NCBI RefSeq assembly: GCF_028641065.1
Contig: NC_073396.1
Coordinates: forward strand, 1,054,001 to 1,118,000
DNA from: Leucoraja erinacea
Taxonomy: Eukaryota
Reading direction: 5' to 3'
DNA length: 64,000 nucleotides
Part shown: positions 2,761-60,059 of the stretch, one piece after another
How the letters are laid out: each line of letters starts with the position of its first letter
How positions within the stretch are numbered: the stretch's first letter is position 1
Notes under the pieces: generated by a model
Told to the model about the DNA's origin: nothing
The model's input: only the letters and a program-made list of their open reading frames with translations
Databases searched by the model: none
Position numbers and translations under genes: made by a program

Positions 2761-23613
<20,853 letters not shown>

Positions 23614-23690
23614 CTTGCCGCGGCCGCTCATGTGACCCGCGCCGGGGACAGTGCGTCAGCGCGTCAGCGCGTCAGTCCGTGCGTCAGCGA
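23614..23690 (-). promoter_or_regulatory. CLCN7 proximal promoter/5' UTR with M-box/CLEAR-like site and half-CRE repeats
   Basis: TCATGTGAC at 23628-23636; four GCGTCA (TGACGC) copies at 23653, 23661, 23669, 23681; CpG-rich. Confidence 0.65.
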
Positions 23691-24125
23691 CGTGGAACGC
23701 GGTAACGCCAACGCCGTAACGTGGTAACGCGGTAACGCCAACGCCGTAACGTGGTAACGCGGTAACGCCAACGCCGTAACGTGGTAACGTGGTAACGCCA
23801 ACGCCGTAACGTGGCAACGCGGTAACGCCAACGCCGTAACGTGGTAACGCGGTAACGCCAACGCCGTAACGTGGCAACGTGGTAACGCCAACGCCGTAAC
23901 GTGGCAACGCGGTAACGCCAACGCCGTAACGTGGTAACGCCAACGCCGTAACGTAGTAACGCCAACGTCGCAACGTGGTAACGCCAACGCCGTAACGTGG
24001 CAACGTGGCAACGCCAACTCCATAACGTGGAACGTGGTAACGCCAACGTCGCAACGTGGCAACGCCAACGCCGTAACGTGGCAACGTGGTAACGCCAACG
24101 CCGTAACGTGGCAACGTGGTAACGC
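23690..24125. repeat. CpG-rich minisatellite, ~30-bp unit GGTAACGCCAACGCCGTAACGTGGYAACGY, ~14-15 units
   Basis: Directly visible tandem array built from 6-8 bp AACG subunits. Confidence 0.95.
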
Positions 24126-29300: not shown

Positions 29301-31676
29301 CCTAACATCCCAGGAATCAGTCTGGTGAACCTTCTCTGCACTCCCTTTATCATGCATTTGTGCATTGAGGATGGTTCAATTGCAATCATGTATTGTCTTT
29401 CTGCTGACTGGTCAGCACGCAACAAAAGCTTTTCACTGGGCCTCGGTACACGTGACAATAAACTGAACTAATAGTAATGGTCATGTAGTAATGACCCATG
29501 TTCAATGTGTCATTCCGTGGCTGGTCGCTGTATGAGGTTGTCACGGTTGCGGGCAGAGCACCAAGGCCAGCATTCCTTGTATGTGAATACCACGGCCAAT
29601 GAAGCGTTGAAGTTCATTCGGAGATCATCTGCACCGTGCCAGGCTCATTCATTCATCGATTCATACATTCATTCATTCATATAAATAGTACATACTTGAC
29701 CCTTCTTTTGCGGGCGACCTCTGCGCGCCACTGGGCGACTGGTTGAGGACCTTGGCTCGCTGGACTGGCGGGGCTGCCGGGGGGTCGCGGTCCGGAGAGG
29801 TGGGCCTGACGGAGAGCGCATCATTCTGCAGTGCGCTCTTCATCTGCTGCTGGAAGCGGGCTATTTGGACATGTTGCTCCTTGATGTCCTCCTGCATCCT
29901 GTCCATGGCCTTGTGCAGCCGCTCCTTGCCCGCCGTTAGGGCGCTGATCTGCTGCCTCTGTTCCTCCACTTGGCTGTTCAGGTTGGAGGTGACCTCGCCC
30001 TGCTGCTTCTTCTCCGTCCACGCTTGCTTGCCCCTCTCGTTCGCCACTTTCTCCAAGGTGGACATCTTCAGGTCGATCTTCTTGTTTTCCTTCAGCAGCT
30101 TTTTGACCCATGATTTGAGGCTGGTGATGTCGTGGCTGGTGGCCGCCTGGAGGCCGCTCACGGTGGCCGTGATGTTCCTGAACTGCTCGGCCAGTATCTC
30201 CAGCCGGAGATCCACGGTGGAAGAAGCGTTGAAGTTCTCGGAGATGATCTGCAACCGTGCCAGGCTCAGTTCTTGGAAACGACGGAACTACGGCAATGAA
30301 TGGGAGGAGGTGACATGTTACAACACCAAGCAGCAGAGGTTTATTGATTGAAAGATACAGCACGGAAACAGGCCATTCGGCCCACCCAGTCCGCACCGCC
30401 CATCGCTCACCCATCACTAGTTCGATGCTAACCCACTTTCTCATCCACTCCCTACACTCGGGGCCATTACCCTCCAATCCCACACGCCTTTGGGATGTGG
30501 GAGGAACCCCACGGGGAGAAAGTACAAACTCCACACCGAGAGCAGGGGGGTGGGGATAGAAGCTGGGTCTCTAGCGCTGTGAGGCAGCGGCTCTGCCCGC
30601 GGCCTCTGTGTCCCGTTGCGAGGACATGTTTCATTTGGACACGGAGGCAGATAAAGATATCCCACAAATTCATGTTCTGGCCGGTAAACCTTTTCACCTC
30701 ATTCATTTTATTCCACCTGGAATTGTCCCGAGAAGTGCTTAAATTCTAAACGCGTTTCATCAGCGTGTACATAGATACATAGAAAACAGGCGCAGGAGTA
30801 GGCCATTCGGCCCTTCGAGCCAGCACCGCCATTGGCTGATCATTCACAATCAGTACCCCGTTCTTGCCTTCTCCCCATATCCCCTTGATTCCGCTAGCCC
30901 TAAGAGCCCACGTTTGAATGCATTCAGTGAACCGGCCTCCACTGGCTTCTGTGGCAGAGAAGTCCACAGATTCACAACTCTCTGGGTGAAAAAGTGTTTC
31001 CTCATCTCCGTTCTAAATGACCTACCCCTTATTCTTAAACTGTGGCCCCTGGTTCTGTACTCCCCCAACATCAGGAATATGTTTCCTGCCTCCAGCGTGT
31101 CCAAACCCTTAGTAATTGCATATGTTTATGTGAACCCTATCATCCTTCTAAATTCCAGAGAATGCAAGAGAATGTCCTTCCTCAAACTAGTCAAAGAAAA
31201 GTGTCCCGAACCGACACGTCGCCTGTCCACTCTCTCCACACATGCTGCCCGTCCCGCTGAGTTCCTCCAGCAAAAGAAAGACACAAAATGCTGGAGTAAC
31301 TCAGCGGGACAGGCAGCATCTGTTGAGAGAAGGAATGGGTGACGTTCTTCAGTCTGAAGAAGGGTCTCGACCTGAAACGTCGCCCATTCCTTCTATCCAG
31401 AGATGCTGCCCGACCCGCTGAGTTCCTCCAGCACTTTGTGTTTTGCTGGAGGTTCCAGCATCTGCAGTTCCCCGTGTCCCAGGGGAACAACAACAAGCCC
31501 CCTCGTGTACAGAGATCGCTGTCACACACCTGCTCCTCCAAGCGTCGGAACCGCTCGAAAAAAGGCTTCCTCTGTTTCATGCTGTCGGCGCTTTCAGCGC
31601 AGGTGGCGGCGTGTAGAACACAGCAGACACACAGCAGGGATAGCCAGGGGGGAGGTTTGCTGAAGTCCATCCTCAT
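25669..31676 (-). CDS. PTX4: Pentraxin-4 (long pentraxin), 3 exons, 459 aa
   Basis: Exons 31676-31530, 30287-29696, 26309-25669 (1380 nt including stop). Signal peptide, RKPFFERFRRLEEQ|FRRFQE motif, coiled coil, and pentraxin domain with HHLCIIWSS signature. Adjacent to CLCN7 as in other vertebrates. Confidence 0.94.
27613..27942 (+). mobile_element. HE1-like tRNA-derived V-SINE
   Basis: tRNA-like head (GGTTCGATCC B box), V-domain ggagtttgcacgttctccc...ggtttcctcccacactccaaagac, CR1-like tail ending (TAAAC)n. Confidence 0.82.
28480..28830 (+). mobile_element. Rex1/Babar-type LINE 3' fragment
   Basis: QRVVDAAQTITQTNLPSI...HPGHSLFSPLPSG. Confidence 0.78.
28836..29346 (-). mobile_element. CR1-like LINE 3' end
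   Basis: GVQRRFTRLIPGM...SRTRGHSL plus tail. Confidence 0.9.
29696..30287 (-). CDS. PTX4: PTX4 exon 2 (coiled coil)
   Basis: FRRFQELSLARLQIISENFNASSTVDLRL...SPAKEGS; TAG acceptor, GTATGT donor, phase 1. Confidence 0.9.
30345..30600 (-). mobile_element. HE1-like V-SINE (degenerate)
   Basis: V-domain and tail on the minus strand. Confidence 0.7.
30770..31165 (-). mobile_element. CR1-like LINE 3' end in PTX4 intron 1
   Basis: RTRGHSLRIRG...FFTQRVVNLW. Confidence 0.85.
31530..31676 (-). CDS. PTX4: PTX4 exon 1
   Basis: MRMDFSKPPPWLSLLCVCCVLHAATCAESADSMKQRKPFFERFRRLEEQ; alternative ATG at 31670. Confidence 0.88.
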
Positions 31677-33842: not shown

Positions 33843-34297
33843 ACTGGAGTAACTCAGCGGGTCAGGCAGCATCTGTGGAGAACATGGATAGGTGACGTTT
33901 CACAGAGTGCTGGAGTAACTCAGCGGGTCAGGCAGCATCTGTGGGGAACATGGATAGGTGACGTTTCACAGAATGCTGGAGTTACTCAGCGGGTCAGGCA
34001 GCATCTGTGGAGAACATGGATAGGTGACGTTTCACAGAGTGCTGGAGTAACTCAGCGGGTCAGGCAGCATCTGTGGAGAACATGGATAGGTGACGTTTCA
34101 CAGAGTGCTGGAGTAACTCAGCGGGTCAGGCAGCATCTGTGGAGAACATGGATAGGTGACGTTTCACAGAGTGCTGGAGTAACTCAGCGGGTCAGGCAGC
34201 ATCTGTGGAGAACATGGATAGGTGACGTTTCACAGAGTGCTGGAGTAACTCAGCGGGTCAGGCAGCATCTGTGGAGAACATGGATAGGTGACGTTTT
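33843..34297 (+). repeat. 66-bp tandem array (~7 copies)
   Basis: Same unit as at 4631. Confidence 0.93.
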
Positions 34298-35439: not shown

Positions 35440-38400
35440 GGGACCACGGGCAGGGTGGTGTCCCCCCTCCTCACCCCTCACCCCCCCCTCTGGGGGCCGG
35501 GCCCAGGTGTATGTTATTTCCCCCCCCCCCCCCCTGGGGGTCAGTGGCCCCATGGTGGAGAGCGCGGGCCTCACTGCAGCACCCGCTGGGGAGAGGAGGG
35601 GCAGTGGGCACAGGGCCAGCAGACCGTACATTGTCAGTGAACAGCACCCATCCCAAACAGCAAACAGCCCCCACCCCATCCCCCGAACCAGCACCCCCCC
35701 CCCCAAACAGCCCCACCCCCCCAAACAGCACCCATCCCCCAACAGCACCCCCCCCCCCAAACAGCACCCATCCCTACCCCCCCAAACAGCACCCACCCCT
35801 ACCCCCCAAACAGCACCCATCCCCCAAACCCACCCACCCCCAAACAGCACCCACCCCTACCCCCCCAAACAGCACCCACCCCCTACCCCCCCAAACAGCA
35901 CCCACCCCATCCCCCCAACCAGCACCCACCCCTACCCCCCCCAACCAGCCCACCCATACCCCCCCCCCAAACAGCACCCATCCCCCAACCAGCACCCATC
36001 CCCCCAAACAGCACCCACCCCCCCAAACAGCACCCATCCCCCCAACCAGCACCCATCCCCCCCAACCAGCACCCATCCCCCCCAAACAGCACCCATCCCC
36101 CCAAACAGCACCCATCCCTGGCGACAGCACCCATCCCCTGGTTGAGCACCCTAAGACCAGTGTCCAGTGTAGCACCTATCATGGGACCAGTGCCTAGAGC
36201 AGCAGCATCCGCAGTGCCACAGCAGTGCTGTTATCCTGCCCAGCACCACTGCAGCCTGCACCACTACCCAGCACCACTCCAGCCCGTAGCACTGCCCAGT
36301 TCCAATGCCTATCTCATATCATTACAGCACTAAACGAAACACAAAGTGTTGGAGGATTGCAGTTTCTCCGGCACCATCTGTGGAGGTACAGACAACATTT
36401 TGGGCCGGGACCCTGCTTCACACTGCCTGGAGTAAGGGGGAGAAAGCTGGAACCCACCGCCCTCTAACCCCCTGTACTTGCCATGCCCCCTCCACCATGG
36501 TGTACACACACACACACACACACATATCTTCCCCCACACTTGTTACCCATTCTGCCTACACTCAAGTGGGTCAAAGAGAATACAAGTCAATGAATATACT
36601 GGGAGATCCAACATTTCTTGCAGCGTTCTTTTCGCAGTGCTCTGCAATCTTATTTGTAGAAATTGATTACATTTGGATCTAGTATTTCACAAAACCGCCA
36701 ACTTTTGTATTTGAGCTGTCTAATATAGACTAAGCCATTTAATGTTCAGCAGAGTGGCTAAAACCATTTAAAGGAGATATGCAGTGCAATAGTCTTTCAG
36801 GTGGGCTCCTGGTTCCCAAGATGGCGCCCAACCCAGGCGACTATTTGCGTGCTAGCCATGGAAGCAGATCTACAAACAAGTATTACAATCGCTCCGCTCT
36901 CTGAAATCTCTACTCCTGAAGCAACATTTCTTACACTGTAAATGGTTCGATTGTAATCATGTATTGCCTTTCTACTGGTACACAAAAATGCTGGAGAAAC
37001 TCAGCGGGTGCAGCAGCATCTATGGAGCGAAGGAAATAGGCGACGTTTCGGACCGAAACCCTTCTTCAGACTGATGGGGGGTGGGGGGGGAGGAGCCCGA
37101 GGGGGGGGGGGGGGGGAGGAGACAGCTCGAGGGTTAAGGAAGGGGAGGAGACAGCAAGGGCTAGCAAAACTGGGAGAATTCAACGTTCATGCCATCCGGA
37201 CGCAAGCAACCCAGGCGGAATATGAGGCGCTGTTCCTCCAATTTCCAGTGTTGCTCACTCTGGCAATGGAGGAGACCCAGGGCAGAGAGGTCGGATTGGG
37301 AATGGGAGGGGGAGTTGAAGTGCTGAGCCACCCGGAGCTCAGGTAGGTTATTGTGGACTGAGCGGAGGTGTTCGGCGAAACGATCGCCCAACCTCTGCTT
37401 AGTCTTTCTACTAACTGGTTAGTACGCAACTATAGCTTTTCATTGTGCCTCGGTACACGTGACAATAAACTGAACTGACTGGACAGAACTGAGCTGGGCG
37501 TTCAGGTAATAGAGGCATATGGTTCAGCACGATGTTAATCAAAACAGAGTGCTGGAGGAACTCAGAGGATCAGGCAGCACCTGTGGAGGGAATGGACAAG
37601 AGAGGTTTTGGTTTGGGACCCTTCTTCAGGCTTTCAGTGGAAGAGATACCGATGGGTTAGATGTCCATTCAATACTATACCGGTTATTTTTTTTGTGTTT
37701 TAGGACGTACTTCACTTTATGGCATTACAAAATTACTACATAAGCACGGAAGGATTTTGTGTCAATTACCATGCAAGTCATCAAGCCAGAGGAGGGCGTT
37801 CACAAATAAGAACATGGCTGTCGAACTGGACACCAACACAGGTAATTTAACAAGAATCTTGCTCTGTAATCTTTTGCAGATGAAGCAAGGACCAATGTGG
37901 GCACTTTGGAGACAGAGACAGAAGAATTTATAAATGGAAAGTAAAAAATGGTCCAGGAATTAAACAATTACCATGTGCTTGATCCATAGAAGAAGACACA
38001 GAAAGATTGCTGAATAAAATGGAGAAGCTAGTGTCGAATGAGAATGATAAACTACAGGTCTTTACTGTTCGTGACAAAATAGTACGAGAGAAGTGATTGA
38101 GCTTGGAACTCGAGTCCCAAAGACCTGATGTTAAGGTCTCTAAAGTTAACCTGGTTAACTTTATATATAGTGGATCCTCAGGGAGACATCTTTCAAGAGT
38201 CTATAAATTTTAGAATTGTCACTGTGATAGCAAGGTAGCAAATGTGACCCCAATTTTAGAACGGAAAAAGCCTGCAAACCAAACAACTAATCTGTTAATC
38301 GAACTTCTGGGTTAGTTTAATTTTTGTTGTAATTGAATGGCCAGGTTTGGACTGAGACAGACTCAGTCATTTGATGTCATTTACAGAAAGTGCTGTCCAC

Positions 38401-41400
38401 AACCATGCCTTACGCTGTCTGAGAATGGTAAGTATCAGTGGGCTGAGGATTAATCCGTTTGCTAATTGAATAAGGAGTTTTCTGTCAACTTGGACATATC
38501 TGGCTAACATTTTGTTGCGTAAAAGAACAACACAAACACTTTGTAGAAACAAAGGACCTGCTGATGCAAGTTAATAGAAAAAAGGGCAGAGTGTTGGAGT
38601 AACTCAGCGGGTCAGGCAGCATCTGTGGAGAACATGGATAGGTGACGTTTCACAGAGTGCTGGTGTAACTCAGAGGGTCAGGCAGCATCTGTGGATAACA
38701 GGGATAGGCGGCATTTCACAGAGTGCTGGAGTAACTCAGCGGGTCAGGCAGCATCTGTGGAGAACATGGATAGGTGACGTTTCACAGAGTGCTGGAGTAA
38801 CTCAGCGGGCCAGCCAGGCAGCATCTGTGGAGAACATGGATAGGTGACGTTTCACAGAGTGCTGGAGTAACTCAGAGGGTCAGGCAGCATCTGTGGAGAA
38901 CATGGATAGGTGACGTTTCACAGAGTGCTGGAGTAACTCAGAGGGTCAGGCAGCATCTGTGGAGAACATGGATAGGTGACATTTTACAGAGTGCTGGAGT
39001 AACTCAGCGAGTCAGGCAGCATCTCTGGAGAACATGGACAGGTGACGTTCTGAAGGAGGGTCTTGACCTGAAACTTCACCTATCTATGTTCACCAGGGAA
39101 GCTACTTGATCTGTTGAATTACTCCAGCACTTTGTGTCCTTGTGTAGAAAATAGTTTAACGTTTATAACTTTTTTTCAGGAGTGGCTGTGATTAAAATGC
39201 AGAAGCCTCCTGTTAACAGTCTCAGCCTGGAATTTCTCACGGAGTTTGCAATTAGCATGGAAAAGCTGGAGATGGATCGGGAATGTCGTGGAGTGATTCT
39301 CACTTCTGTATGTATGATGAATAACTCTGCTTCACTGAATCATGGAATGATATACCATTTGACCCATCATGACTATGAAGACTCATTAGTAGACTCCCGT
39401 GCATATTTTTCCTATATCTATTAATCTAGGAAATATCTAATTCCCATTTAATTGCTATGATTGAACCTATCTTTTGCATCATTTTGTTTTGTGCATTTCA
39501 CGACACACCAACATGTGTACAGCAGATGTAGAAACAAGGAACTGCACATGCAGGTTTACAAAAAAGACACCAAGTGCTGGACTCAGCGGGTCTGGCAGCA
39601 TCTCTGGAGAGCATGGATAGGTACAAAGTGCTGGAGTAATACAGTGAGTCAGGCTGCATCTCTGGAGAGCATGGATATGTGATGTTTTGGATCGAGATGG
39701 CTGTCTTCTGGTACAAGAATATGATAATTAAGAACCAGATGATGTAGGTTTAAGGTGAAAGGAGAAAGATTTAATAGGAACTGGAGGGGCAACTTTTTCC
39801 ACACAGAAGGCAGTGGGCATGTGGAATGCCAGAGGTGGTTGAGGCAGGTTATTATAACAACATTTATAAGACATTTAGCAGGTACATGGATAGGAAAGGT
39901 TTAGAGAGATTTGGGCCAAATGCGGGCAGGTGGCACTAGCTCATAGGCAGAGTTGTAGAGTTACAGTATGGAAACAGGCCCTTCGACCCAACTTGCTGAT
40001 GCTGCCAAGATGCCCCATCTACACCTGCCCATGAGGCATCTTGCTCGGCATGGACAAGTTGGGCCAAAAGGCCTGTTTCCGTGCCGAATGTCTATATAAT
40101 TCTGATAGGCACATATTAAATGGTAATGAGATTACTGCTCTTTTGAATTAATGATGTGGCACCAATGTGTAAAATGAGTAATTGAATTTTCAAATGAAAT
40201 CGCACAAGTTTATCCCAATAATCTTCCCATGTGCTTGAACTGGTCCATATTTCGGAAAGCTAAAATGGAATTGTGCTTTAATTTTAGTCTATTCCCAACA
40301 TCTTTTCTGCTGGTTTGGATATCACCGAGATGTGTGGGAAGTCCCCAGAACATACGGGGGAGTTCTGGAGATCAGTGCAGGAAATGTGGTTGAAACTCTA
40401 CGGATCCAGCCTAGTGACCATCGCTGCCATCAATGTAAGTGGCACAGCCGTCTTTCAATTGAATTGAATTGAATACGTTTTATTAGCCAAGTATGCATAC
40501 ATACAAGGAATTTGCCTTGGTGCTTTGCTCGCAAGGATAACAATACAACATACAGTAGACAATTAAAAATAAAACATTATAATCTAAATATGTGAAGAAT
40601 AAAATAAAATACCAGAGCAAAAGGAGGCTACAGACTTTTGGCTGTTGAGTAGAGCTACTGCTCATGGGGAAAAAAAGCTGTTTTTATGTCTGGCTGTGGC
40701 AGCTTTGACAATCCGGAGTCGCCTTCCAGAGGGAAGTGATTCAAAGAGTTTGTGGCCAGGGTGAGATGGGTCAGAGATGATCTTGCCCGCTCGCTTCCCG
40801 GCCCTTGCAGTGTACAGTTCATCAATGGGGGGGAGATTGCAGCCAATAACCTTCTCTGCTGATCGTACAATGCACTGCAGCCTCCGGGTGTCGTGCTTGG
40901 TGGCTGAGCCAAACCAGACCATTATGGAGAAGGTGAGGACAGACTCTATGATGGTAGTGTAAAACTGGGCCATCATTGCCTGTGGCAGATTTAATGATTT
41001 GTAATTTACAAATCATTTGTTTAAGTTGTTACTTATCCTCACATTTTTCAAGGAAGGGGCAATGAAACTGAAACATGAAGATTGACAGATCCACGTTCAT
41101 TTAGGCACCTCACTATCATCATTTATTTGCAAAGTCAAACAGATTTTGGACCTTATTTGAATGGATAAGCACCCAATGTGTACATTACGGATACTTTGGA
41201 TGGGACTAAAAAGTGCAGAAGGATAAAACAAAAACAGAAAATGGTGGACACACTCAGCAGGTCAGGCTGCATCTGTGGAGAGTGAGAGATGCAGAGAGAA
41301 CATTTCAGTTGGGACACCCACTGTAAGAACTGAAAAGGTGACAAAAGAAAGTCGCAAAACTGCAGAGAGGGGGATGATGAGCTAAAACTGGGGTGACCAC

Positions 41401-44375: not shown

Positions 44376-46599
44376 AAGAAAGCCACTCTTGTGGTAATAG
44401 TGTTTGTGCAGCTGCTGCAGTCAGAACATAGAACAGGATGGCACAGAAACAGGCCCTTTGGCCCAGAATGTCCATGCCAAGTTAAACTAAAACCAGGTCT
44501 TTGGTCGGTGGTGAACTCTGGGATGATCTAAGTGGGTTATTTGCTGATGAGAATGTTGTTGATGTCAAGGTGAGGTGATTACTGTTCCTCTAGTTGGAGA
44601 TGGTCAATGCCTGGCACTTTCATGATGTGTACAGAGGTTGTCACGTTTCATTCACAGCAGGTATGCTTGTCATGTCTTGCTTCATTATCTGAAAATCTGC
44701 TATTGGAATCGACCACCATTGTAATTATTCAATACAAATTTTGAAAACTTGTTTTGTTGCCTTTTTTCATTGCAAATTACTTCTGCACAGTTTAGTCTTT
44801 GGTTAAAGTCTTCTTCCGGCCATATATGTAACCAGTGCATTTTTTGTAGACAAAAATGTGCTTGTACATATATCAACTAAGCCACATTTATCAACATTTT
44901 TTTTCTATGGACTCTCTTCTTCTGTGATATGATTTTGTGATCAATCAACTTCAAACTTAATAAACATTACTAAAAAATATAAAATTGACACAGGATAAAA
45001 AGTAAACATATTATTAAAATTATCATTTTTAGAGGTGCCGGTATGTCGTACCATTACAAAAAAAAGCACTGCCTGTAACCCAAGGTAGACAAAAATGCTG
45101 GAGAAACTCAGTGGGTGAGGCATCATCTAGGCGACATTTCGAGTTGAGACCCTTCTTCAAACTACTCCACTGTCTGTAACCCAATAATTTTCATATCTTT
45201 TAATACACTGCACAGATTTAACTTGTTTAAAAAAATGATAGACAGTTTTTTTTATTATAGATATAAACTTTTATGTTAACTTTGTTTTAACTTTTCAGTC
45301 TGGCCCACAAACTTGCTGGTAAAATCTTTTCCTCCTTTTACATACACTCGTGGAAATAACAAGTGACTCTTATGGATTTTTTCTTTCTGAAAAACAAAAC
45401 GATTCCACTTTTCATCTTATGAATTGAGGATGTCACAGGGAAATGGAAATCAACCCCGCACACAGTGAAATTTGAGTTGCCACTTAAAACTTTGTTTTGC
45501 TGAGAAATGAAGGTTGAGCAAATTTGTCAAACATACTTTACATTTCATAAAACCATGTTTGACCAGAGTTTATTATATTCATCTTTCCAAAATGATTTTC
45601 CTCTGATTATTCACTCCAGCAGCTTGCCAGTAATATAGCTGTTAGTTGGATTAGTTGGATAACTGGATTTCTCTTCGTTCTGACTTTTTTGGATGAGGGA
45701 ATTATGTTGGCTCTTCTACAATCTTCTGGAAGTCTCCTTTAAATCCCCACCTCCTTTCTCCTTTGGCCCGTTCTTTAGGAAAACTGCACAACCTGGAATA
45801 TTGATCACTCTGCAACCATGTTTCGGTAATAGCAATTACATCGGACAACTTATTAAGAAAGAACTGCAGATGCTGGAAAAATCAAAGGCAAGACAAAAAT
45901 GCTGGAGAATCTCAGCGGGTGAGGCAGCATCTATGGAATGAAGGAGTAGGTGATGTTTCAGGTCGAGACTCTTCAAGACAACTTAAAGTAGTACTTAAGA
46001 AGTTTTTAAGAAGGAACTGCAGATGCTGGTCTGAAGAAGGGTTTCGGCCCGAAACGTTGCCTCTTTCCTTCGCTCCATAGATGCTCCACTGAGTTTCTCC
46101 AGCGTTTTTTTGTGTACCTTAAAGTAGTACTTTATTGGACCTCGTGAAACACGAGGCATTGGAAATGATTTCCACACGGCCTGTTTTGAAAACATTTGTC
46201 ATTATATACTAACTAAATATCAAAGTGAATCTGAGAAGAAACCCCAGCAATTTGAACTTTGTCAAAATATTAAATTAGTTTTGACTGCTGCCTTAATGGA
46301 ACTTTAAATGTGGATTGAGGTAGGAACAGCAACAACATTTAAAAGACATATGGTTCTGTCTTTAAATAAGGCAAAATTCAGCCCATAAAAACTGTTTGGC
46401 ACAATAACATCTAAACTCAGAGTGAAAGGCAGAGTTCTTTAGCATTACCGTTACATGTGGGAGAAAGAAATGTATCACCCAGATCTGATGTGTCACAGAT
46501 GTAGAGGGAGGTGGGCAAATTAGAAAAATTTAGATGGGGCATTTTGGTCGGTATGAAGTAAAAGGGGTGTCTTGGATTGCATGGAATATATGGGGCATT

Positions 46600-49559: not shown

Positions 49560-52500
49560 GTAAGTTGTACAAGATAATTTCAGAAGATCTATAATTTACC
49601 ATTTTAAAAACTACCTACTGTCCCTCTGAGTTACTCCAGCATTTTGTGTCTATCTTTACTTCAAATCTGTCAGGCAATGCCCTTTTTGAGAATGGGGTCT
49701 AGGCTTGAAACATTTATCCATTTGTTGAAGAAGTGTCCAGACCCAAAACATTGCCTATCCAGAAATGCTGCCTGACCTGCTGAGTTACTCCAGCACTTTG
49801 TGGAGTTGCTCTCGCGTCTGCAGTTCCTTGTGTCTCCATTCATCCATCTCTTCTTGTCATAGACGATGACAGACCTTTAGAGAATGTTCCATATGTGATA
49901 GGTTAAGCATAAACTAGCATGAATAAGGAAGCTCCAAATTTTTGAAACTTGGGCAACATGCTTGATTGAGTAACTCTTCCTTTTGTCTCCATAATCAATC
50001 ATAAACTACATTATTTGTCAGTATTTGCATGATAGAGGAACTTTATTTGAGACAGTCATACCCATAAAAAGGCAATATGGGTTAAGCATACAACTAGCAT
50101 GAATAAGGAAGCTCCACATTTTTGAAAAGCGTAAAAAATGCTTGATTGAGTTTGTCAAAGTGGTTTTAACCTTCTTGACGGGACGACCTTACTCCCGTAG
50201 CCGGCGGTGGGCGTCCTCGTTGGGGCAAGCGAGCTCCTGCATTGGGGGGGGGGATCTCAGCTTCCCTGCGCCGGGTGATCTACCCCGGGTCGGGACTAGT
50301 GGAATGTTGTGCGGCTTTTGGAGCTTCCTGACGTCGGTCTCTTACCTGAGACTGCGAGCTCCTTGATGTTAAAGTCCGCAGGCCGCGGTTGGAGAGTCGA
50401 TCCCAGACAAAGGATCGGCTGCGATGGTAAGTCCACACCCCCGCGTTGGGGCTCCAAGTCAGTCCCGAGCATGACCTCCAGCTCCATGATGTTAGGCTGC
50501 AGAGCGACCGGAGATACGACCCGGAAAACAATCGTATATCTCCGGCAAGGTTAGAGTTTGAAAAAAGGTTTCCTCCCGATCCCCTCCCCCACCCCCCACA
50601 TAAAACAAACCAGAGAACATTAACACAAATGTGGAGAAACGGCAAGTAATTCATGTAATTCTTTACTACTGAGCTCATTTTTTTTAGTACTTTCTGGTGG
50701 TTTTACAACATTTTAAAGTAATTTTAATCAGTTAGTTTTGTATGTTGGTGAATAACAGAGACATTCTCAAATACTCAGGCTGTTTTTATCTTGTGTTCGG
50801 GCTCGTAACAAAGTTAATTTGGTTGCCAAAAGCACTTCTGTCAGCTATGCAGGACCTCAGTTCAAGACGGTTTAAATAGCGATATCTATTCTGCAGAAGA
50901 TCTCAGGAATGAGTAGGTTAACATATGATGAGCATTTGACGGCACTGGGCCTTTACTCGCTGGAGTTTAGAAGAATGAGGGGGGACCTCATTGAAATGTA
51001 CAGAATAGTGAAAAGCTTGGATAGAGTGGATGTGGAGAGGATGTTTCCACTAGTGGGAGAGTCTAGGACTAGAGGTCATGGCCTCAGAGCCAGCATCCCC
51101 ATTCAATATGATCATGGCTGATCATCTAAAATCAGGATACACAGAAAAGCTGGAGAAACTCAGCGGGTGCAGCAGCATCTATGGAGCGAAGGAAATAGGC
51201 AACGTTTCGGGCCGAAACCCTTCTTCAGACTGATCGGGGGTGGGGGTGGGTGGGGACAAGAAAGGGAAAAGGAGGAGTAGCCAGAAGGCTGGAGGGTGGG
51301 AGGAGACAGCAGGGGAGCTGAGGAAGGGGAGGAGACAGCAAGGACTAACAGAATTGGGAGAATTCGATGTTCATGCCCCGGGGGTGTAGACTCCCCAAAC
51401 GGAATATGAGGTGCTGTTCGGCCCGAAACGTTGCCTATTTCCTTCGCTCCATAGATGCTGCTGCACCCGCTGAGTTTCTCCAGCTTTTCTGTGTAACCTT
51501 CGATTCTCCAGCATCTGCAGTTCCCTCTTAAACACCATCTAAAATCAGGAACCCGTTTCTGCTTTTTCCCCGTATCCCTTGATTCCTTTAGCCCCAAGAG
51601 CTAAATCATACTCTTAGATTCACCTCTCAAGGAGCTGAGAAATTTCTTTAGTCGGAGGGTGGTGAATCTGTGGATTTCTTTGCCACAGAAGGCTGTGGAT
51701 ATTTTTAAGGCATAGATAGATAGATTCTTAATTAGTACGGGTGTCAGAGGTTATGGGGAAAATGCAGAAAAGGGAGCGATAAATCAGCCATGATTGAATG
51801 GCGGAGTGGGTTTGATGGGCCGAATGGCCTAATTCTGCTCCTATCACTTATGACTTTAAGAACTGGATTGGGGACAGATGAATTCCGATTATGCTGTTTC
51901 CGCTGATTATAAGCTATTTGGGCTATTTTGTCTCCAGTGATGTGTGTCCTTTTTTGTATTTCATTGTGCTTTCTTCTGTACTAACCTTTAGTTTCCTTTA
52001 TTGCAAGAGATTGAGTTCATTGCAGGAGCTACAACTGCTGGAGATCATGTGTTGTTATTTCCAAGAACAAAGTAAAGATGCAGTTCGACAGATCATCTTC
52101 TCTGCACTGTTTGGTCCTCAGGGTAATAAAGCTGATGACAATAGACTGGCTATGTTGGGGAAACTCGTCTCCATGGCCATAGCAATCTGTCGTGTTCCCA
52201 TTCTGGAATGTACTGCCATGTGGTTACAGGTATGTCCCGCCCTCTGAAAGCGTAAGGTAAAATATTGGAATGTTGCAAAGTAAATGGCTATCCAATAATA
52301 ATGAATGAAAGTAGAGTGTGTGATTTGTTCCACCTTTTTGTTTGTTTTGTGAAGAGAGAGAGATTATTAGTTGATGCAAGTGAAGAATGTCTGCTTCCCC
52401 ATCCACTGCCCCACCCCGCCTTTACAGCTTTCTCCACCCCTTCCCTTCTACTATCCGTCTGAAGAAGGGTCCTGACCCAAAACATCATCTGTCCATTCCC

Positions 52501-55500
52501 TTCCTGATGCTGCCTGACCACTGTGTTGGTCCAGCATCTGTTTTGCCCGAGAATATTTTACTTAGTATGACTGTATGGTAACTCAAATTTCACTGTACCT
52601 TAATTGGTACATGTGACAATTAAATTGAATCTTGAATTTCTATGTATAATGTTTATAAAAAATAATGTTTTATATCTGTGCATGAAACTTTTCTGTCTTA
52701 CCAAACCAACAGCACTATATTGTGTGTGCACTGTTACACCTTTAACTTTTAAATGTTTAAAAAACTTTAAAATTAAATCCATCCTTGCATTTGTCATTTA
52801 TTGATATCTAACATTAAAGGTGTTTGAAATTAAATCACAATTGAATTAATTTAGATGACCTATGCAATGATTTGAAGATAGACACAAAGTACTGGAGGAA
52901 CTCGGTGAGACAGGCAGCTTCTCTGGAGAGAAGGACTGGGTGACTTTTTGGGTCTAGACATCACTCAAACCTTCTCTCCAGAGATGCCGCCTGTCCCGCT
53001 GAGTTACTCTAGCACTTTGTGTCCATCTTCGGTGTAAACCAGCATCTGCAGTTCCTTCCTACACATTTCATGTGCAATGATTTTTCTCTGTGGCTGTGTT
53101 GCAGAGAACACACGCGGTATTCTGTGTGAAACTTGCGAAGGTCTTGGTGGAGGATTACTGCATTCTGGTGCCTGGCTCTGTACAGACACTCAAGCGGATT
53201 GTTCACGCCAGTCCACGCTTCTGCTGCCAGCTGATCACTGCAGTCACTGCCCTCTATGACCTCTCCACAGGTATGGTATTGACACCATCTTTAAAAAGCA
53301 CCTGTTTGAATCGTTTTACCTTTCACAATTTTACAATGTACTGCACATATTCTTGCTTTGTTCTGTGATTATGTTATTTTTTCATTGATGGGAATATTGA
53401 AACCTCTAATTCATTTGTTCCTGTTTTTCTCTTCTGCTATAATTACTTATTATATCATCTTCCATCTCTAAACCTTTATGGTTATCATGTACTTTTGCAC
53501 ACGTGAGGCAATAAACTGACCTGAACTGGTTGCAGTATCTTTAAAGAAGGTTTGTGGGGGGAACGGGGTGACATAGCAGTAATGCTGCCTTTTCTCTGAG
53601 CTCAGTTGTTCTATAGACAATAGGCAATAGGTGCAGGAGTAGGCCATTTGGCCCTTCGAGCCAGCTCCGCCATTCAATGTGATCATGACTGATCATCCCC
53701 AATCAGTACCCCGTTTCTGCCTTCTCCCCATATCTCCCCCTGACTCGTCTATTTTTAAGAGCCTTGTCTAGCTCTCTCTTGAAAGTATCCAGAGAACCGA
53801 CCTCCACCGCCCTCCGAGGCAGGAAATCCCACAGACTCACTACTCTCTGTGAGAAAAAATGTTTCCTTGTCTCCGTTCTAAATGGCTTACTCATTATTCT
53901 TAAACTGTGACCCCTGGTTCTGGACTCCCCCAACATTGGGAACATGTGCCCTGCCTCTAGCGTGTCCAAGCCCTTAACAATCTTGTTCTGTTGCAGATGA
54001 CCTGATTCCTCCACAAGATCTGCTGGAGATGGTCGTATCCTGGGTGTTCGAGGATCCACGGTTGACACTCATCACGTTCTTGAACAGTGCAGCGAATCTC
54101 CCACGCGGGTTTCTGGAGCTGACACCGCTGCCAGGCCTGATCCGCTGGTGTGCACTTGCACCACTAGCTTACAAAAGGAACTGCAAGACTCCCTCAGCAC
54201 CAAGCTTTGTGAATGGGCACAGCAACAAAATGTGCAAGGAGGTTGAAAGTGACGGAAACAAGGACATCAAGATCCTTTACTCAAAGCTGCATCTAAGTGT
54301 CCTTCAAGTCCTTATGATTCTTCAGGGCCATTTAACGGAGAAAAACTTGTACGGACGGTTAGAACTCATCATGTTCGATCACATCGAACGGCTTGTTGGA
54401 GACATTAACAAATTGGTTAAAGAACTGAACCTTTCGAATCCCGTGAAGGAGGTTGAACTGGCGTTGGACAGGTTAGCTCAAGCTCTGCAAGTTGGTATCG
54501 CATCAGGAGCGCTGCTGTGTGCCCGAGGTAAGCTGAGGACATTACTTAGAAACAAGCAACTGCACATCCTGGCTCCTGGCTTCCTCCTTTGTGTGCAAAA
54601 GGATACAAGCTGCTGGAGTAACACAGTGGGTCAGGTAGCATCTGTGGAGAACATGGATAGGTGATGTTTCACAGAGTGCTGGAGTAACACAGCGGGTCAG
54701 GCAGCATCTGTGGAGAACATGGATAGGTGACGTTTCACAGAGTGCTGGAGTAACTCGGGTCAGGCAGCATCTGTGGAGAACATGGATAGGTGACGTTTCA
54801 CAGAGTGCTGGAGTAACACAGTGGGTCAGGCAGCATCTGTGGAGAACATGGATAGGTGACGTTTCACATTGAGTTCTCCAGTGATGCTGCCTGATCTGCT
54901 GTGTTACTCCAGCACTTTGTATCCTCTTCAGGACCTAACTGTGTTGAAATAAATTAATTGGGTTATCTTGCAGAAAGGTTGTTGAATATAATTCAGTTAC
55001 ATTCCTTAGCCAGACTCTTTGATTATTGAAAATATGAAACAATTTACATTATGTGGTTTTTCTTTGATATTCTGTTTTTGTTTTCATATTATGACCAGAA
55101 GTTATATCATCCCAAAGTTATAACAGTAATTGTAGGGTACTTTCCCAGAAGGTGAGGTCAAATAAGTAGGCAAAGGGTAAATCAGTCACTGTGGGATTTT
55201 TAGTGACCCAGTTCAAGTGAGTAGTTCAAGCATTGCTTCAGTAGATATTTAGTAGACATATTGTTCAATAAACAATGATATTGTGCTTGAGAAACTAGAA
55301 ACCGATCTAAACTCCGAAGTATGTTCCAGATCTAAAATGTCACCAATCCATGTTCTCAACAGATGCTGCCTGACCCGCTGAGTTACTCCAGCACATTATC
55401 TTTTTTTGTAAACCAGCATCTGCAGTTTATCCATTAAATTGACAATATTGTTTTAACTATATTTTATTTAACTCTGATATATTGATTGAATTTATTAATT

Positions 55501-58443
55501 AGATTTTCTCCTTTTTATAAAACTGCTATACATAGGGTTTTATTAATTATCACATCAGCAGCAATTCATATTTAATAATTTAAGCTCAATGATTCTTGGT
55601 TGAGTTTGTCTATCTACATGTAAATACACACTAATTCAATCTATGGGTTATGTTGCATTCAATATTAGTAAATTTCTAAGTGTTGAAAAGGAACAAGAAT
55701 TAAATTTGACAACTGGGGCAGTGTGGTTTAGCATCTGGAGGAGCTGTTTGCATTCTTATTTCAAGGCCAGATCACCCTCCTTGCTCTGCCTATTGAATGG
55801 GATAACACTGGGAAATATATGTCTTTTACATGTTTTCATTATAATTCCAAAGAAGAAAGAGGGGAACATAAAATTTGCCTGAACACTGTGATTTGTAAAC
55901 AATACAGATTTTATTTAAAAAAAGACTGCCAAATTCTGTGATGTGTAATGTTAGATTACTTAACAATCTGATCTTCCCAAGATAAAACATGGTCTTGGAC
56001 AGACTTTCAGTGACATCACATTTTGGTGTATATTTTCAATTTAAATCTCTGACTAATCAGTTTAATCTTCTTGCGTTTGGCGTGCACAGCCTAGAGTTGT
56101 AGGTCAACCTGTTCTATTTGGTCTATTTGTTTGTACACGTCGGGTTGATTGCGTTAGGCGAAGCAGGGTGGACCACGTGAAGGTTGCAATCTCCCATCGT
56201 ATCAGTTTGATAAAAAATCAGCAATATCTTTAACCTCGTTACTCTGGTAAAGGTTAGTTTATTTTGGAAATGTAAATTTGGAAAACATAAAAGTAATTTA
56301 AATTATTGAATGTATAAATATTTACATATTGTTGACTAAATGAGTTTACTTTATTAATTGTTATCATGCATTTTCTAGATAATTTGCGTTCCATCTGCTC
56401 TGCACTTCCACCTCACAAGTAAGCAAGCTTATTCTCTACAGTATTTGATAATTTCTGAGAAAAACATTAATTTAAAATAGTTGCTGTGAACTTTACGTTT
56501 TTATTTCTGTGCTACGAAAAATTGCTCACATTTTTTAGTCTGTGACTCTCTGAAAATAGACACCGTGGTGCAGCTGGTAGAGTGGTGGGCTCACGGCTGG
56601 TAGAGCGGTGGGCTCACGGCTGGTAGAACCGCGGGCTCACGGCTGGTAGAACCGCGGGCTCACGGCTGGTAGAGCCGCGGGCTCACGGCTGGTAGAGCCG
56701 CGGGCTCACGGCTGGTAGAACAGCGCCAGAGCCCCTGGTTCAAGTCTGGCCTCGCTTGCTGCCTGTGTGGACTTTGCACGTTCTCCCTGTGACTGTGGCT
56801 TTCCTCAGAGTGCTCCAGTTTCTTCCCATGTCCCAAAGACTTGTGGGTTTGTAGGTTAATTGACCTGGAAATTTCCCCTAGTGTGTAGGGAGTGGATGAG
56901 AAAATGGAGTAACTTAGAACTAGTGTGAAGGGGGTGATTGATAGAAACATAGAAAAAAATTGGTGCAGGAAGTAGGCCATTCGAGCCAACACCATCATTC
57001 AATATGATCATTGCCGATCATCCAGATTCACAACTCTCTGGGTGAAGAAGTCTTTCCTCATCTCGGTCCGAAATGGCCTGCCCCTTATTCTTAAACTGTG
57101 ACCCCTGGTTCTGGACTCCCCCCAACACTGGGAATATTTTTCCTGCATCTAGCCTGTCCAATCCTTTAAGAATCTTATCTGTTTCTATAAGATCCCCTCT
57201 CATCCCACTAAATTCCAGTGAATACAAGCCCAGTCGAACCATTGTTTCATTGACAATGACAATTCAATGACAATTAAATGTATCTTGTATCTTGTTGATG
57301 GTCTGCGTGGACTCAGTTGCTCAAAGGGTCTGTTTCCGCGTTGTATCTTTAAATCGATCAAAATAACTTAAATAGATATGAATATATTGGGCTGTCAATA
57401 AGCAGCATGCATCCAGAAAAAGAGATTGCGTCCTTCTTTATCTGTCTCTAACGTTATAGATATTTTAATTGTAATCAGCATTTTTCTTCAAGCATTCTAC
57501 ACCCAGTGAATTTTTATTCTCCGGGTCATCTGATCACTCAGTAACTGCCAGTGCCATATTTCTGGTGTACAGGTGGTTGGGGTCAGCTTACAGCTCCTGG
57601 CTCCCTCACCAAGTCACTGGGAGCTAAAGCTGCAGGTCTCAGTGACAGGGGGCCAGTGCTCCTTCACCAAGACTCTCAGCCTATTGGTGAAAGAACTCTG
57701 ACTGAGATCCTGGGTGGATAGAATGGATGTGGAGAGGATGTTTCCACAAGTGGGAGTGTCCAGGACCAGAGGTCACAGCGTCAGACGAAAAGGACGTATC
57801 TTTAAAAAGGAGATGAGGAGGAATTTATTTTGTCAGAGGATGGTGAATCTGTGCAATTCTTTGCCACAGAAGGCTGTGGAGGCCGTCAGTAGATATTTTA
57901 AAGGCAGAGATAGATAGATTCTTGATTAGTACGTGTGTCAATACCAATTATATAAAGACTTTTACATTGGAAATTGAATTTCATAGTAGGGATAAAATAA
58001 ACGTTTTTAGTGTGAGCTTGTAGAAAAACAATAGGGAATAGATAGCAGCAGCTGAAAATGGCTTTAGTTAATTTGCATTTCTTGCTTGCTGTCACCATTA
58101 ATCATCTATCATGCATTATTATCTCTCTTATTGTCACTTTTACGGGGATGATTGAGTGCTATGAGAATTAAAAAATATATATTATTATTGAACCTGATTT
58201 GCCAGGTCACGGATTTTAAGAAGTTGAACATAAGGAAAGCTAGTTGTAACGTTTATTTTGTTTCTGGACAGCTTGCTTCAGTTGGTTTTGACGGGACCAG
58301 TCCAGCAGCCATCACATACAGCGTTGCCGCCTGGCTTCTACCCACACATCCACACGTCCCCAGCTCGCTACCCCATGTACTCAACTCACCCGGTGCAGAC
58401 GTACATGCCGGGCATGGCTTTCTCCTATCGGCCGATCCGGTGA
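49368..58443 (+). CDS. INTS15: Integrator complex subunit 15 (C7orf26 orthologue), 6 coding exons, 440 aa
   Basis: Exons 49368-49559, 52008-52229, 53105-53270, 53997-54527, 56379-56418, 58272-58443 (1323 nt). N-terminus MTDIRHSLLRRDALSAAKE and C-terminus LPPGFYPHIH...RPIR* match C7orf26. Confidence 0.95.
51137..51535 (-). mobile_element. Penelope-like element 3' end with inverted terminal arms
   Basis: Degenerate HxFRLGSLHPxGMNIEF remnant plus the same pseudo-LTR in both orientations. Confidence 0.75.
52008..52229 (+). CDS. INTS15: INTS15 coding exon 2
   Basis: RLSSLQELQLLEIMCCYFQEQ...ECTAMWLQ. Confidence 0.95.
53105..53270 (+). CDS. INTS15: INTS15 coding exon 3
   Basis: RTHAVFCVKLAKVLVEDYC...ALYDLST. 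Confidence 0.95.
53613..53982 (-). mobile_element. CR1-like LINE 3' end inserted in the INTS15 3' splice-site region
   Basis: KIVKGLDTLEAG...FFSQRVVSLW; flanked by TTGTTCT at 53606-53612 and 53983-53989 (probable TSD). Confidence 0.88.
53997..54527 (+). CDS. INTS15: INTS15 coding exon 4
   Basis: DDLIPPQDLLEMVVSWVFEDPRL...ASGALLCAR. Confidence 0.95.
54610..54868 (+). repeat. 66-bp tandem array (~4 copies)
   Basis: Same unit as at 4631. Confidence 0.9.
56379..56418 (+). CDS. INTS15: INTS15 coding exon 5 (40 nt)
   Basis: DNLRSICSALPPH(N); phases 1/2 fit neighbours; compare human DDLRTLCSRLPHN. Confidence 0.88.
56560..57352 (+). mobile_element. HE1-like V-SINE with amplified head, interrupted by an antisense CR1 (~56941-57240)
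   Basis: 23-bp head repeat, B box GGTTCAAGTC, V-domain; tail resumes at ~57295. Confidence 0.75.
58272..58443 (+). CDS. INTS15: INTS15 last coding exon
   Basis: LLQLVLTGPVQQPSHTALPPGFYPHIHT...FSYRPIR*. Confidence 0.93.
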
Positions 58444-60059
58444 AAGATTCTCCATTACAAAGATATCCATCCACCTCGTTCGTGGATATGTATAGTTTTT
58501 GCATTGAAACCAATTGCGAAGAGTTATTTCAGTACCTTTTTTTAAAAACTGAAAATTTGTACTTATCAATGAAGATAAAATGAATTGGTTGAAACCATCT
58601 GCGTATTTTATACTTTCTTAATGAGGTTTACCAAACTTTTACCTACAGCAGTAACATGGTTAAGAATTTTGTACATCCACAGTTTTAAAAACACACCCAT
58701 CCTACATCAGTCTGACGAAGGGTTTCTGCCCGAAACGTTGCCTATTTCCTTCGCTCCATAGATGCTGCCGCACCCGCTTAGTTTCTCCATCACTTTTGTC
58801 TACCTTTAAAAACACACATCCTTCTTGTGGATTTAAGGAACTGCAGATGCTGGAAAATCGAAGGTACACATGTGTACCCGCTGAGTTATAACACAATATG
58901 TTTTTCTAAAAAGCTCCTTAATTTTGTAAAGTTTGTGCCTTTTATGAGCATCTTTCAAGTGAAAGAGTACACCAAATCTGCTGTTTTTCATTATTTGGAG
59001 CAGTGTAGAAGAATGAACAAGTTATGACTACTTTTAAAATAGAGCAAAATAAAATGTTGCATGAAAGTAACAGTGAAACTGTATACATAATGCCTTCTGA
59101 AAATTGGGCCAATGCACAGGTCACAAAAAGTACATCTCTCTCATCATTTAAGGATTATTATTCTTCTGCTTCAAGTATTACGATTTATTCGTATGACCAA
59201 TTAATGTATTGAATGAATGAATTAATACTTTGTCACGTGAGTAGTCCCTGTGAAATTCTTTGCTTGTATGCAACAGTCGCCACATCAGATTCAGATTCAA
59301 TCTTTATTGTCATTGTGCAGTGTACAGTACAGAAAGAACGAAAGGCCGTTGCTAAAGTTACAAAGTGTCACGTGCTAGGTTCACCTTTGTTCTCCACCCC
59401 ACCCCTCACGGTGGCCCATACCCTCAAGGCAGCCCCCTCCTCTCACGGCTCCCCCCCCCCTCCCCTCAATAGCAAGAATGTCCTTCTGGTTCTGGTTGAT
59501 TAGATTCAGATTCAGAAAACTTTATTGTCTGTTGTAACAGAAAATCTTCTTTGACATGGCTCAACATACAGACAGGACAATGTACTGATAAGCAGTCATA
59601 CAACACAGATTTCTGCGAGCACACACAGTGTGTATCGAGCTTAAAAGCAAATATAAAGATTAAAAACTGTAAAAATAGACAAGATAAAATTACTGGGCAA
59701 ACACCTCATAAGTGGTTATCTCGCTTAGGTCCTTCCTCAAATTAGGACAAAATGGGGCTAGTTCAGAATAGAAACATAGAAACATAGAAATTAGGTGCAG
59801 GAGTAGAGGCCATTCGGCCCTTCGAGCCTGCACCGCCATTCAATATGATTATGGCTGATCATCCAACTCAGTATCCCGTACCTGCCTTCTCTCCATACCC
59901 CCTGATCCCCTTAGCCACAAGGGCCACATCTAACTCCCTCTTAAATATAGCAATATAACTCTATGCAGAATAGCACAGAAACAAGGGCATGGTATTTGTG
60001 ATGTGAGTTTGTATCAGGGGCAATCCCCTTCAATGGCACTCTTGAGACTGTCAATCACC

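Follow-up and report, generated by a model that had tools for sequence, protein, structure and literature searches.

Minimal hammerhead ribozymes are already known as a class from Penelope-like elements (PLEs), and the family that we describe here from the skate Leucoraja erinacea is a further member of that class. As described in PMC4209133, PLE hammerheads lie in the pLTR, carry an extra base between positions 9 and 10.1 and a G10.1-C11.1 pair, have a palindromic 15.2-16.2 stem with no loop 3, and occur mostly as single truncated copies with some pairs on opposite strands; in all of these respects the skate family is like them. However, helix I is 2 bp long in the skate whereas the Schistosoma motifs have 4-5 bp, a length of 2 bp being given for D. 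virilis alone, and the 4-bp helix II of the skate motif is unlike that of the motifs described there (PMC4209133). Exact cores number 58,946 in the skate against about 4,000 in coelacanth and about 9,000 in Xenopus, counts that were obtained with different descriptors (PMC4209133). Low activity in vitro has been reported for PLE minimal hammerheads, and no cartilaginous fish is named in the passages of that survey that deal with them (PMC4209133). Our own search for literature on PLE hammerheads in skates or sharks, which covered neither Repbase/Dfam nor most subscription journals, found nothing on this family; elasmobranch motifs may stand in the supplements of earlier surveys.

In the Anolis Poseidon element PAc, the hammerhead is described as protein-assisted and dispensable for insertion, and reverse transcription starts at two internal sites, by which the tail is defined (Frangieh et al., 2024; PMC11167929). 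The skate element resembles PAc, as presented there, in its two tail-defining start sites for reverse transcriptase (RT), in an apparently unprocessed RNA substrate and in having no RNA ends at the cut site. It differs in that the PAc ORF starts at stem II, whereas the first in-frame ATG of the skate element lies at about +164 (locus L058) (PMC11167929). Furthermore, the skate linker carries CX4CxxC, which is a Neptune/Nematis trait (PMC8557442).

Non-LTR retrozymes, as outlined in PMC7229834 and bioRxiv 2026.07.22.740005, have a type I hammerhead, PLE ancestry and tandem derivatives in common with the skate family. They carry a complete hammerhead in each unit of 150-450 bp and form circular RNA, whereas the skate copies are dispersed and their tandem units lack the core.

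A Penelope-like element with a hammerhead motif

The window, by which we mean the whole 64,000-nucleotide stretch of skate DNA analysed, holds a 427-bp PLE insertion that has a 9-bp duplication on both sides and includes the final 80 codons of a GIY-YIG domain. An earlier note on this DNA had placed a hammerhead core just past the end of that ORF on the minus strand; read directly from the window, the 28-nt motif has the letters given by its author, and the core starts 91 nt after the stop codon. The features of the insertion are as follows.

36968..36976, minus strand: target-site duplication, 3' copy, 9 bp (direct reading)
36977..37403, minus strand: 5'-truncated PLE insertion comprising GIY-YIG tail, 91-nt pyrimidine-rich spacer and hammerhead, ending at the short (+93) site
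37042..37069, minus strand: focal hammerhead core, with C3 at 37069 and a predicted cut after 37042; stem II decayed; antisense to an ECI1 intron
37070..37075, minus strand: ATCAGT, immediately before C3, holding the 2-bp strand of stem I and the putative start region of the element RNA (from sequence and 5'-end clustering)
37161..37403 (tail 37164-37400), minus strand: C-terminal GIY-YIG remnant and stop, 91% identical to the L021 RT and GIY-YIG protein
37404..37412, minus strand: target-site duplication, 5' copy, 9 bp (direct reading)

Longer copies contain a single ORF encoding an RT with a C-terminal GIY-YIG domain. The L021 protein scores just under the Pfam cut-offs for both RVT_1 (E 5e-6) and GIY-YIG (E 9e-4); a shark relative of 68% identity passes RVT_1, and the best named relatives are proteins of sharks and rays (64-72% identity). 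Near-complete elements at L056 and L058 run from 5' repeat through ORF to 3' repeat, and a partial-tandem pLTR arrangement was found in 22 of the 30 loci that hold the 5' region of the ORF. The hammerhead motif is located in the pLTR of an endonuclease-bearing PLE. Translations show CX4CxxC between RT and endonuclease; a CX2-5CxxC linker in this place is given as a Neptune/Nematis trait in PMC8557442, and the likeness to that clade is one of linker. The GIY-YIG tail has 88,020 preliminary candidates in the 2.19-Gb genome, and because some copies are 99-100% identical over 400 nt, their sequences suggest that the element was recently active.

Several other observations were made on these loci. 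At L058:1310-1470 there is no stop in the ORF frame between the TGA of the core and the first ATG at about +164, and the same holds for all three full-length copies. The full-length copies at L056 and L057 have homologous 5' flanks, and the same flank family follows another copy in L056; this shared flank is possibly a preferred target repeat. At L217, L218 and L219 (about 1440-1530) the spacer is absent and the GIY-YIG end is fused to the hammerhead at short shared words, the join coming after an inverted arm in L217 and L218. These joins look like template jumping.

Abundance and predicted fold of the core

Besides the focal core, the earlier note had listed five further copies. All of them stand where it placed them, and together the six cores (10869, 31354, 37042, 46031, 51201 and 58712) are the six window matches to a strict minimal-hammerhead descriptor. 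The insertions carrying the other five are these.

10791..10959, both strands: head-to-head pair; core 10869-10896 (plus) antisense in an intron of the CLC gene
31276..31445, both strands: head-to-head pair of an older subtype; core 31354-31381 (plus) antisense in an intron of the pentraxin gene
46029..46120, plus strand: short copy whose 5' end is at -1, preceded by an inverted piece of tail and with a target duplication; its core, 46031-46058, is intact, and the ECI1 stop lies about 2.8 kb upstream
51134..51419, minus strand: second ORF-linked copy and short-tail palindrome arm, with GIY-YIG tail 51348-51419 and intact core 51201-51228; antisense to INTS15
51417..51535, plus strand: inverted long-tail arm of the preceding insertion, starting at +13, with the 5' half of the core missing
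58707..58806, plus strand: short copy, in sense orientation in the predicted 3' UTR of INTS15; its core, 58712-58739, is intact and has C at N7

In 114 scattered 10-kb loci (1.14 Mb) the strict descriptor gave 74 matches against 0-2 per shuffle in 10 shuffles, a density that extrapolates to about 140,000 cores genome-wide. The exact core pattern had 58,946 matches in the genome and its reversed control none, and a looser pattern matched 21 times in the window against a mean expectation of 4.2. With a DNA profile, 87 repeat pieces amounting to 6,175 bp were found in the window and 635 in the genome sample (about 1.2 million by extrapolation), 239 of the latter spanning the core and the downstream part. 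The hammerhead motif is real and far above chance.

The CUGANGA, GAAA and UH core, the extra base and the G10.1-C11.1 pair are all present in the family. Stem I was said in the earlier note to be of 2-3 bp; it is of 2 bp in 53 of 86 descriptor matches and of at least 3 bp in eight, but the 10869 copy has only 0-1 bp in register. The 31354 copy has a G10.1-U11.1 pair. In the focal core at 37042-37069 a private change leaves two G-U pairs in stem II, and the hairpin energy is +0.5 kcal/mol against -5.1 for the family form; this copy is decayed. Stem III, described earlier as an ACGU palindrome without a loop, is exactly that in all eight cluster consensuses, which allows a dimer stem III. PLE-associated hammerheads that cleave as dimers were reportedly described by Lunse et al. 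in 2016. These are reported to have a very short palindromic stem III and to cleave as dimers (reviewed in PMC6765202); the skate motif shares the short palindromic stem III, a likeness at the level of description.

Folding gave a less favourable picture. A hammerhead was not predicted in any of 10 monomers (z -0.64 to +1.64), in all six copies folded as dimers the best dimer fold was more stable than the hammerhead fold by 13-34 kcal/mol, and the hammerhead was not favoured in arrays of a head plus a unit. An alternative hairpin is predicted across the hammerhead region in family A. A scan against Rfam matched no hammerhead family, even at E 5. From its sequence, the motif is nonetheless predicted to be a minimal type I hammerhead of the PLE kind, in which A9 is followed by an extra base and stem III is palindromic, and this assignment, also that of the earlier note, agrees with the description given in PMC4209133.

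Insertion ends and the RNA template

All main subtypes of the hammerhead repeat were found directly behind GIY-YIG ORF ends. In the youngest family (family A; 111 sampled copies, numbered with C3 as +1), 3' ends fall at +86 to +103 in 58 copies and at +117 to +142 in 46, the other seven lying elsewhere, and so define two end sites about 36 nt apart, a short tail at +93 and a long tail at +130. Among 16 head-to-head pairs, three of which had unclassifiable ends and were dropped, long+short combinations made up 11 of 13, short+short two and long+long none (p = 0.01). A target duplication of at least 8 bp surrounds 19 of 43 short non-inverted solo copies (control mean 0.44, maximum 3). An inverted 5'-truncated copy and a tail of 30-40 bp at one end are among the known PLE features given in PMC8557442, and two tail sites, target duplications and long/short palindromes are typical hallmarks of PLE insertion. 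The short repeats are insertion ends of autonomous PLE lineages. Between the upstream duplication and the 5' end of short copies such as those at L192, L194, L201 and L132 there are 2-16 extra bases, several of them purine-rich.

A hammerhead cut would give a 5' end at +29, and only 4/111 family A copies start at +27 to +31, whereas 71 start at -12 to +12, 11 at +13 to +26, five further 3' and 20 upstream. The 5'-end hazard is 0.061 per nt at -12 to +12 against 0.002-0.008 elsewhere. Among the 30 loci that include the 5' region of the ORF, seven have their start no more than about 8 nt from C3 and one starts further in, the others being the partial tandems. The cluster is spread over about 25 nt and includes inverted junctions (32 paired arms and 21 partial), and BLAST ends are blurred in the C-rich spacer. 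Most copies still hold the 5' half of the core, so their templates were uncut; and because 71 of 111 start no more than 12 nt from C3 and only four at the cut site, the templates of family A were likely uncut RNAs beginning at the ribozyme. The simplest reading, we infer, is an RNA start at the initiator-like TCAGT. An internal Inr/DPE promoter has been described for D. virilis Penelope (PMC2377424).

We consider it probable that a predicted minimal type I hammerhead sits in the pLTR of an abundant elasmobranch PLE, and that the short intronic repeats are the insertion ends of this element, likely reverse-transcribed from uncut RNA with its 5' end at the ribozyme. The transcript would begin a few bases before C3, for which reason only a 2-bp stem I would be left. 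Having nicked the target, the element protein would prime at an internal site, +93 or +130. A copy of 95-135 nt, ending where the RNA starts, would come from priming in the 5' repeat, and palindromes from priming on both strands. By analogy with Anolis PAc, cleavage in source elements is likely weak and would need a second copy and the element protein, and the inserted copies are likely passengers. A more specific version of this proposal is plausible but tentative. The transcript would start 2-5 nt before C3, so that the hammerhead would be the very 5' end of the mRNA and a second copy would have to pair with it for the fold to form; the genome would then contain several hundred thousand complete, strong-stop-like reverse transcripts of just the uncut 5' repeat, mapping the start site and explaining regeneration of the pLTR.

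Alternatively, the RNA might start elsewhere, with RT stalling or folding back at the hammerhead hairpins of a longer read-through RNA. This stays a rival because many of the 5' ends, at +7 to +11, are inverted junctions within a self-complementary stretch, and the alternative hairpin of family A covers the region. However, non-inverted solo copies cluster as well (34/58 at -12 to +12), the same start is found in long copies that reach the ORF 5' region (7/30), and the foot of the hairpin (+20) is not favoured (hazard 0.008). We regard stalling as unlikely.

Other marks of the RNA 5' end were also sought. In a check for a cap-derived G, position -2 was G in 15, T in 11 and C in two of 28 copies (p = 0.009), several of the G cases keeping pLTR upstream and perhaps reflecting A-to-G change; position -3 was G in 4/10 (p = 0.3). 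The CAG before the core was considered as a splice acceptor, as in D. virilis, and this reading was not supported: eight genome matches to the pattern were found, and in three of them the ORF end runs directly into the core, joins that microhomology can account for in each case; no splice-type joint of ORF end and core was present among the 15 RNA joints listed of 205. In four raw-read RNA runs, chosen by species label and made from fragmented libraries, 13,642-20,158 reads each lay on the pLTR junction and 79-94% of them ran on into unrelated sequence, while the ORF 5' region was almost without reads. There was no pile-up of starts or ends in these four runs, whose fragmented libraries cannot reveal cleavage. 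Since the reads run into unrelated sequence, the ORF 5' region is nearly empty and no pile-up is seen, the pLTR-junction reads fit passive co-transcription.

Constraint in source lineages

Across 278 copies, non-CpG catalytic positions differ in 2-9%, against flank means of 6-8%, and G12, which lies in a CpG, is mutated in 26%, as are CpGs of the flank. Inserted copies thus decay neutrally, the core of each copy at the rate of its flank. A different result was obtained for seven subtype consensuses, taken from clusters built on downstream positions only after one singleton cluster (1/278 copies) had been dropped: catalytic positions are invariant in 11/11 cases against 38/55 for the flank (p = 0.027), and subtype changes are located in loop II, at 11.4 (a wobble pair) and at H17. 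The source lineages appear to have kept the hammerhead core. Conservation of the core beyond its flank, which the earlier note had looked to as a test, is seen among subtype consensuses but not in the decay of individual copies. Compensatory change in stem II, its companion test, was absent: no two-sided change separates the subtypes, which differ only by U-A/U-G at 10.4/11.4 and at 2.1/1.1. The free variation that the note had proposed for N7, from CUGACGA in the 58712 copy, is borne out by single variants genome-wide, which number 2,590 at N7, 1,369 at the extra A, 1,491 at A6 and 1,224 at A9; N7 variants are 1.9 times as frequent as those at the extra A, which has the same trinucleotide context.

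These data bear on the idea that a promoter or protein-binding function (the initiator-like TCAGT with a downstream element) is what keeps the sequence, which would no longer cleave. The internal promoter of D. virilis Penelope (PMC2377424) offers a precedent, hammerhead folding is unfavourable, no cut-site ends are apparent in genome copies or RNA reads, and constraint at the extra A is on a par with that at A6 and A9. Yet the pattern is that of a hammerhead, with subtype variation in loop II, the wobble pair and H17 and selective tolerance at N7, and the similar PAc motif is reported to cleave with protein (PMC11167929). We find such a promoter or protein-binding role in place of cleavage rather improbable.

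Tandem arrays

Four arrays of 66-bp units occur in the window.

4630..4939, minus strand: 66-bp tandem array (repeat analysis)
33844..34296, minus strand: 66-bp tandem array with a damaged hammerhead head
38587..39049, minus strand: 66-bp tandem array whose unit is a pLTR stretch starting at G12 and ending at the short tail site; units without CUGANGA and stem II
54611..54868, minus strand: 66-bp tandem array (repeat analysis)

Units after the first keep the cut site and lack CUGANGA and stem II. The array junction has 17,899 exact matches genome-wide; among the matches listed, junctions are clustered near the end of C1 and at 24-26 Mb of C2. The arrays are a non-coding derivative of the pLTR and could have arisen from repeated template realignment by a telomerase-related RT, or from one master copy. 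That a single head core cuts every headless downstream unit in cis, as one enzyme with many substrates, strikes us as most improbable.

The earlier note had suggested a retrozyme-like non-autonomous family, and short repeats spreading independently through self-cleaved circular RNA would indeed accord with the great excess of non-coding over coding copies, with the non-coding 66-bp sub-lineage and its 17,899 exact junctions, and with a preprint in which animal retrozymes are reported as PLE-derived (bioRxiv 2026.07.22.740005). That suggestion is not supported, however, since the repeats are ends of autonomous PLE lineages and the sole tandem arrays have no core after the first unit. Subtypes follow GIY-YIG ORFs, and the copies end at the tail sites of PLEs rather than at the cleavage site. 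The sample holds 30 head-to-tail groups, and in at most one of them do two units pass even a loose core test, whereas the preprint, in its definition, requires that consecutive units each have a complete hammerhead. An intact neighbour on the same strand within 1 kb is present for only 4 of 50 exact cores. The repeats are not non-LTR retrozymes in the sense of a complete hammerhead in each consecutive unit, and their independent spread is very unlikely.

Host genes

The genes of the window, which we take to be CLCN7, PTX4, ECI1 and the last exon of INTS15, lie on the minus (CLC and pentraxin genes) and plus (ECI1 and INTS15) strands. The earlier note had further proposed that self-cleaving motifs and long hairpins are placed in their pre-mRNAs. 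The hairpins stand, as palindromes, a known inverted-end insertion structure of PLEs according to PMC8557442, do place them in introns. The self-cleaving motifs fare less well: four of the six intact cores (10869, 31354, 37042 and 51201) are in antisense orientation to their host gene, the 46031 core lies 2.8 kb beyond the ECI1 stop and behind three AATAAA, and only the 58712 core is sense. This last lies about 270 nt after the predicted INTS15 stop (about 58441-58443), with the next AATAAA at 59048, and is predicted to be within the INTS15 3' UTR. An effect on host pre-mRNAs is thus weakly supported. Regulation of CLCN7, PTX4, ECI1 and INTS15 transcripts by cleavage at single copies deserves very little credence: host RNA carrying the repeat is abundant and the stem II of the sense INTS15 copy is predicted to fold in isolation (P = 0.99), but the hammerhead fold of that copy is not favoured in its 261-nt context (z = 0.22), most window cores are antisense, core-spanning pieces inside genes are 9 sense and 10 antisense, and copies decay neutrally. 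For these host genes the motif is probably of little consequence, and only the copy in the INTS15 3' UTR merits a test.

Two further features were noted at the CLC gene: a Tc1/Sleeping-Beauty-like transposase remnant at 19816-20487, within the gene, and an array of 22-30 bp repeats at 23690-24125, just upstream of the start codon.

Conclusions

The skate family is real, apparently constrained in its source elements and likely passive in the window. Its point of interest is the evidence for uncut templates beginning at the ribozyme. The role of PLE hammerheads is described as unsettled in PMC8557442, and the skate genome has no fewer than 58,946 intact cores whose ends can be read. As these cores point to constraint in the source, later neutral decay and uncut templates, a model in which the RNA would start at the ribozyme and serve uncut as the template is directly testable.
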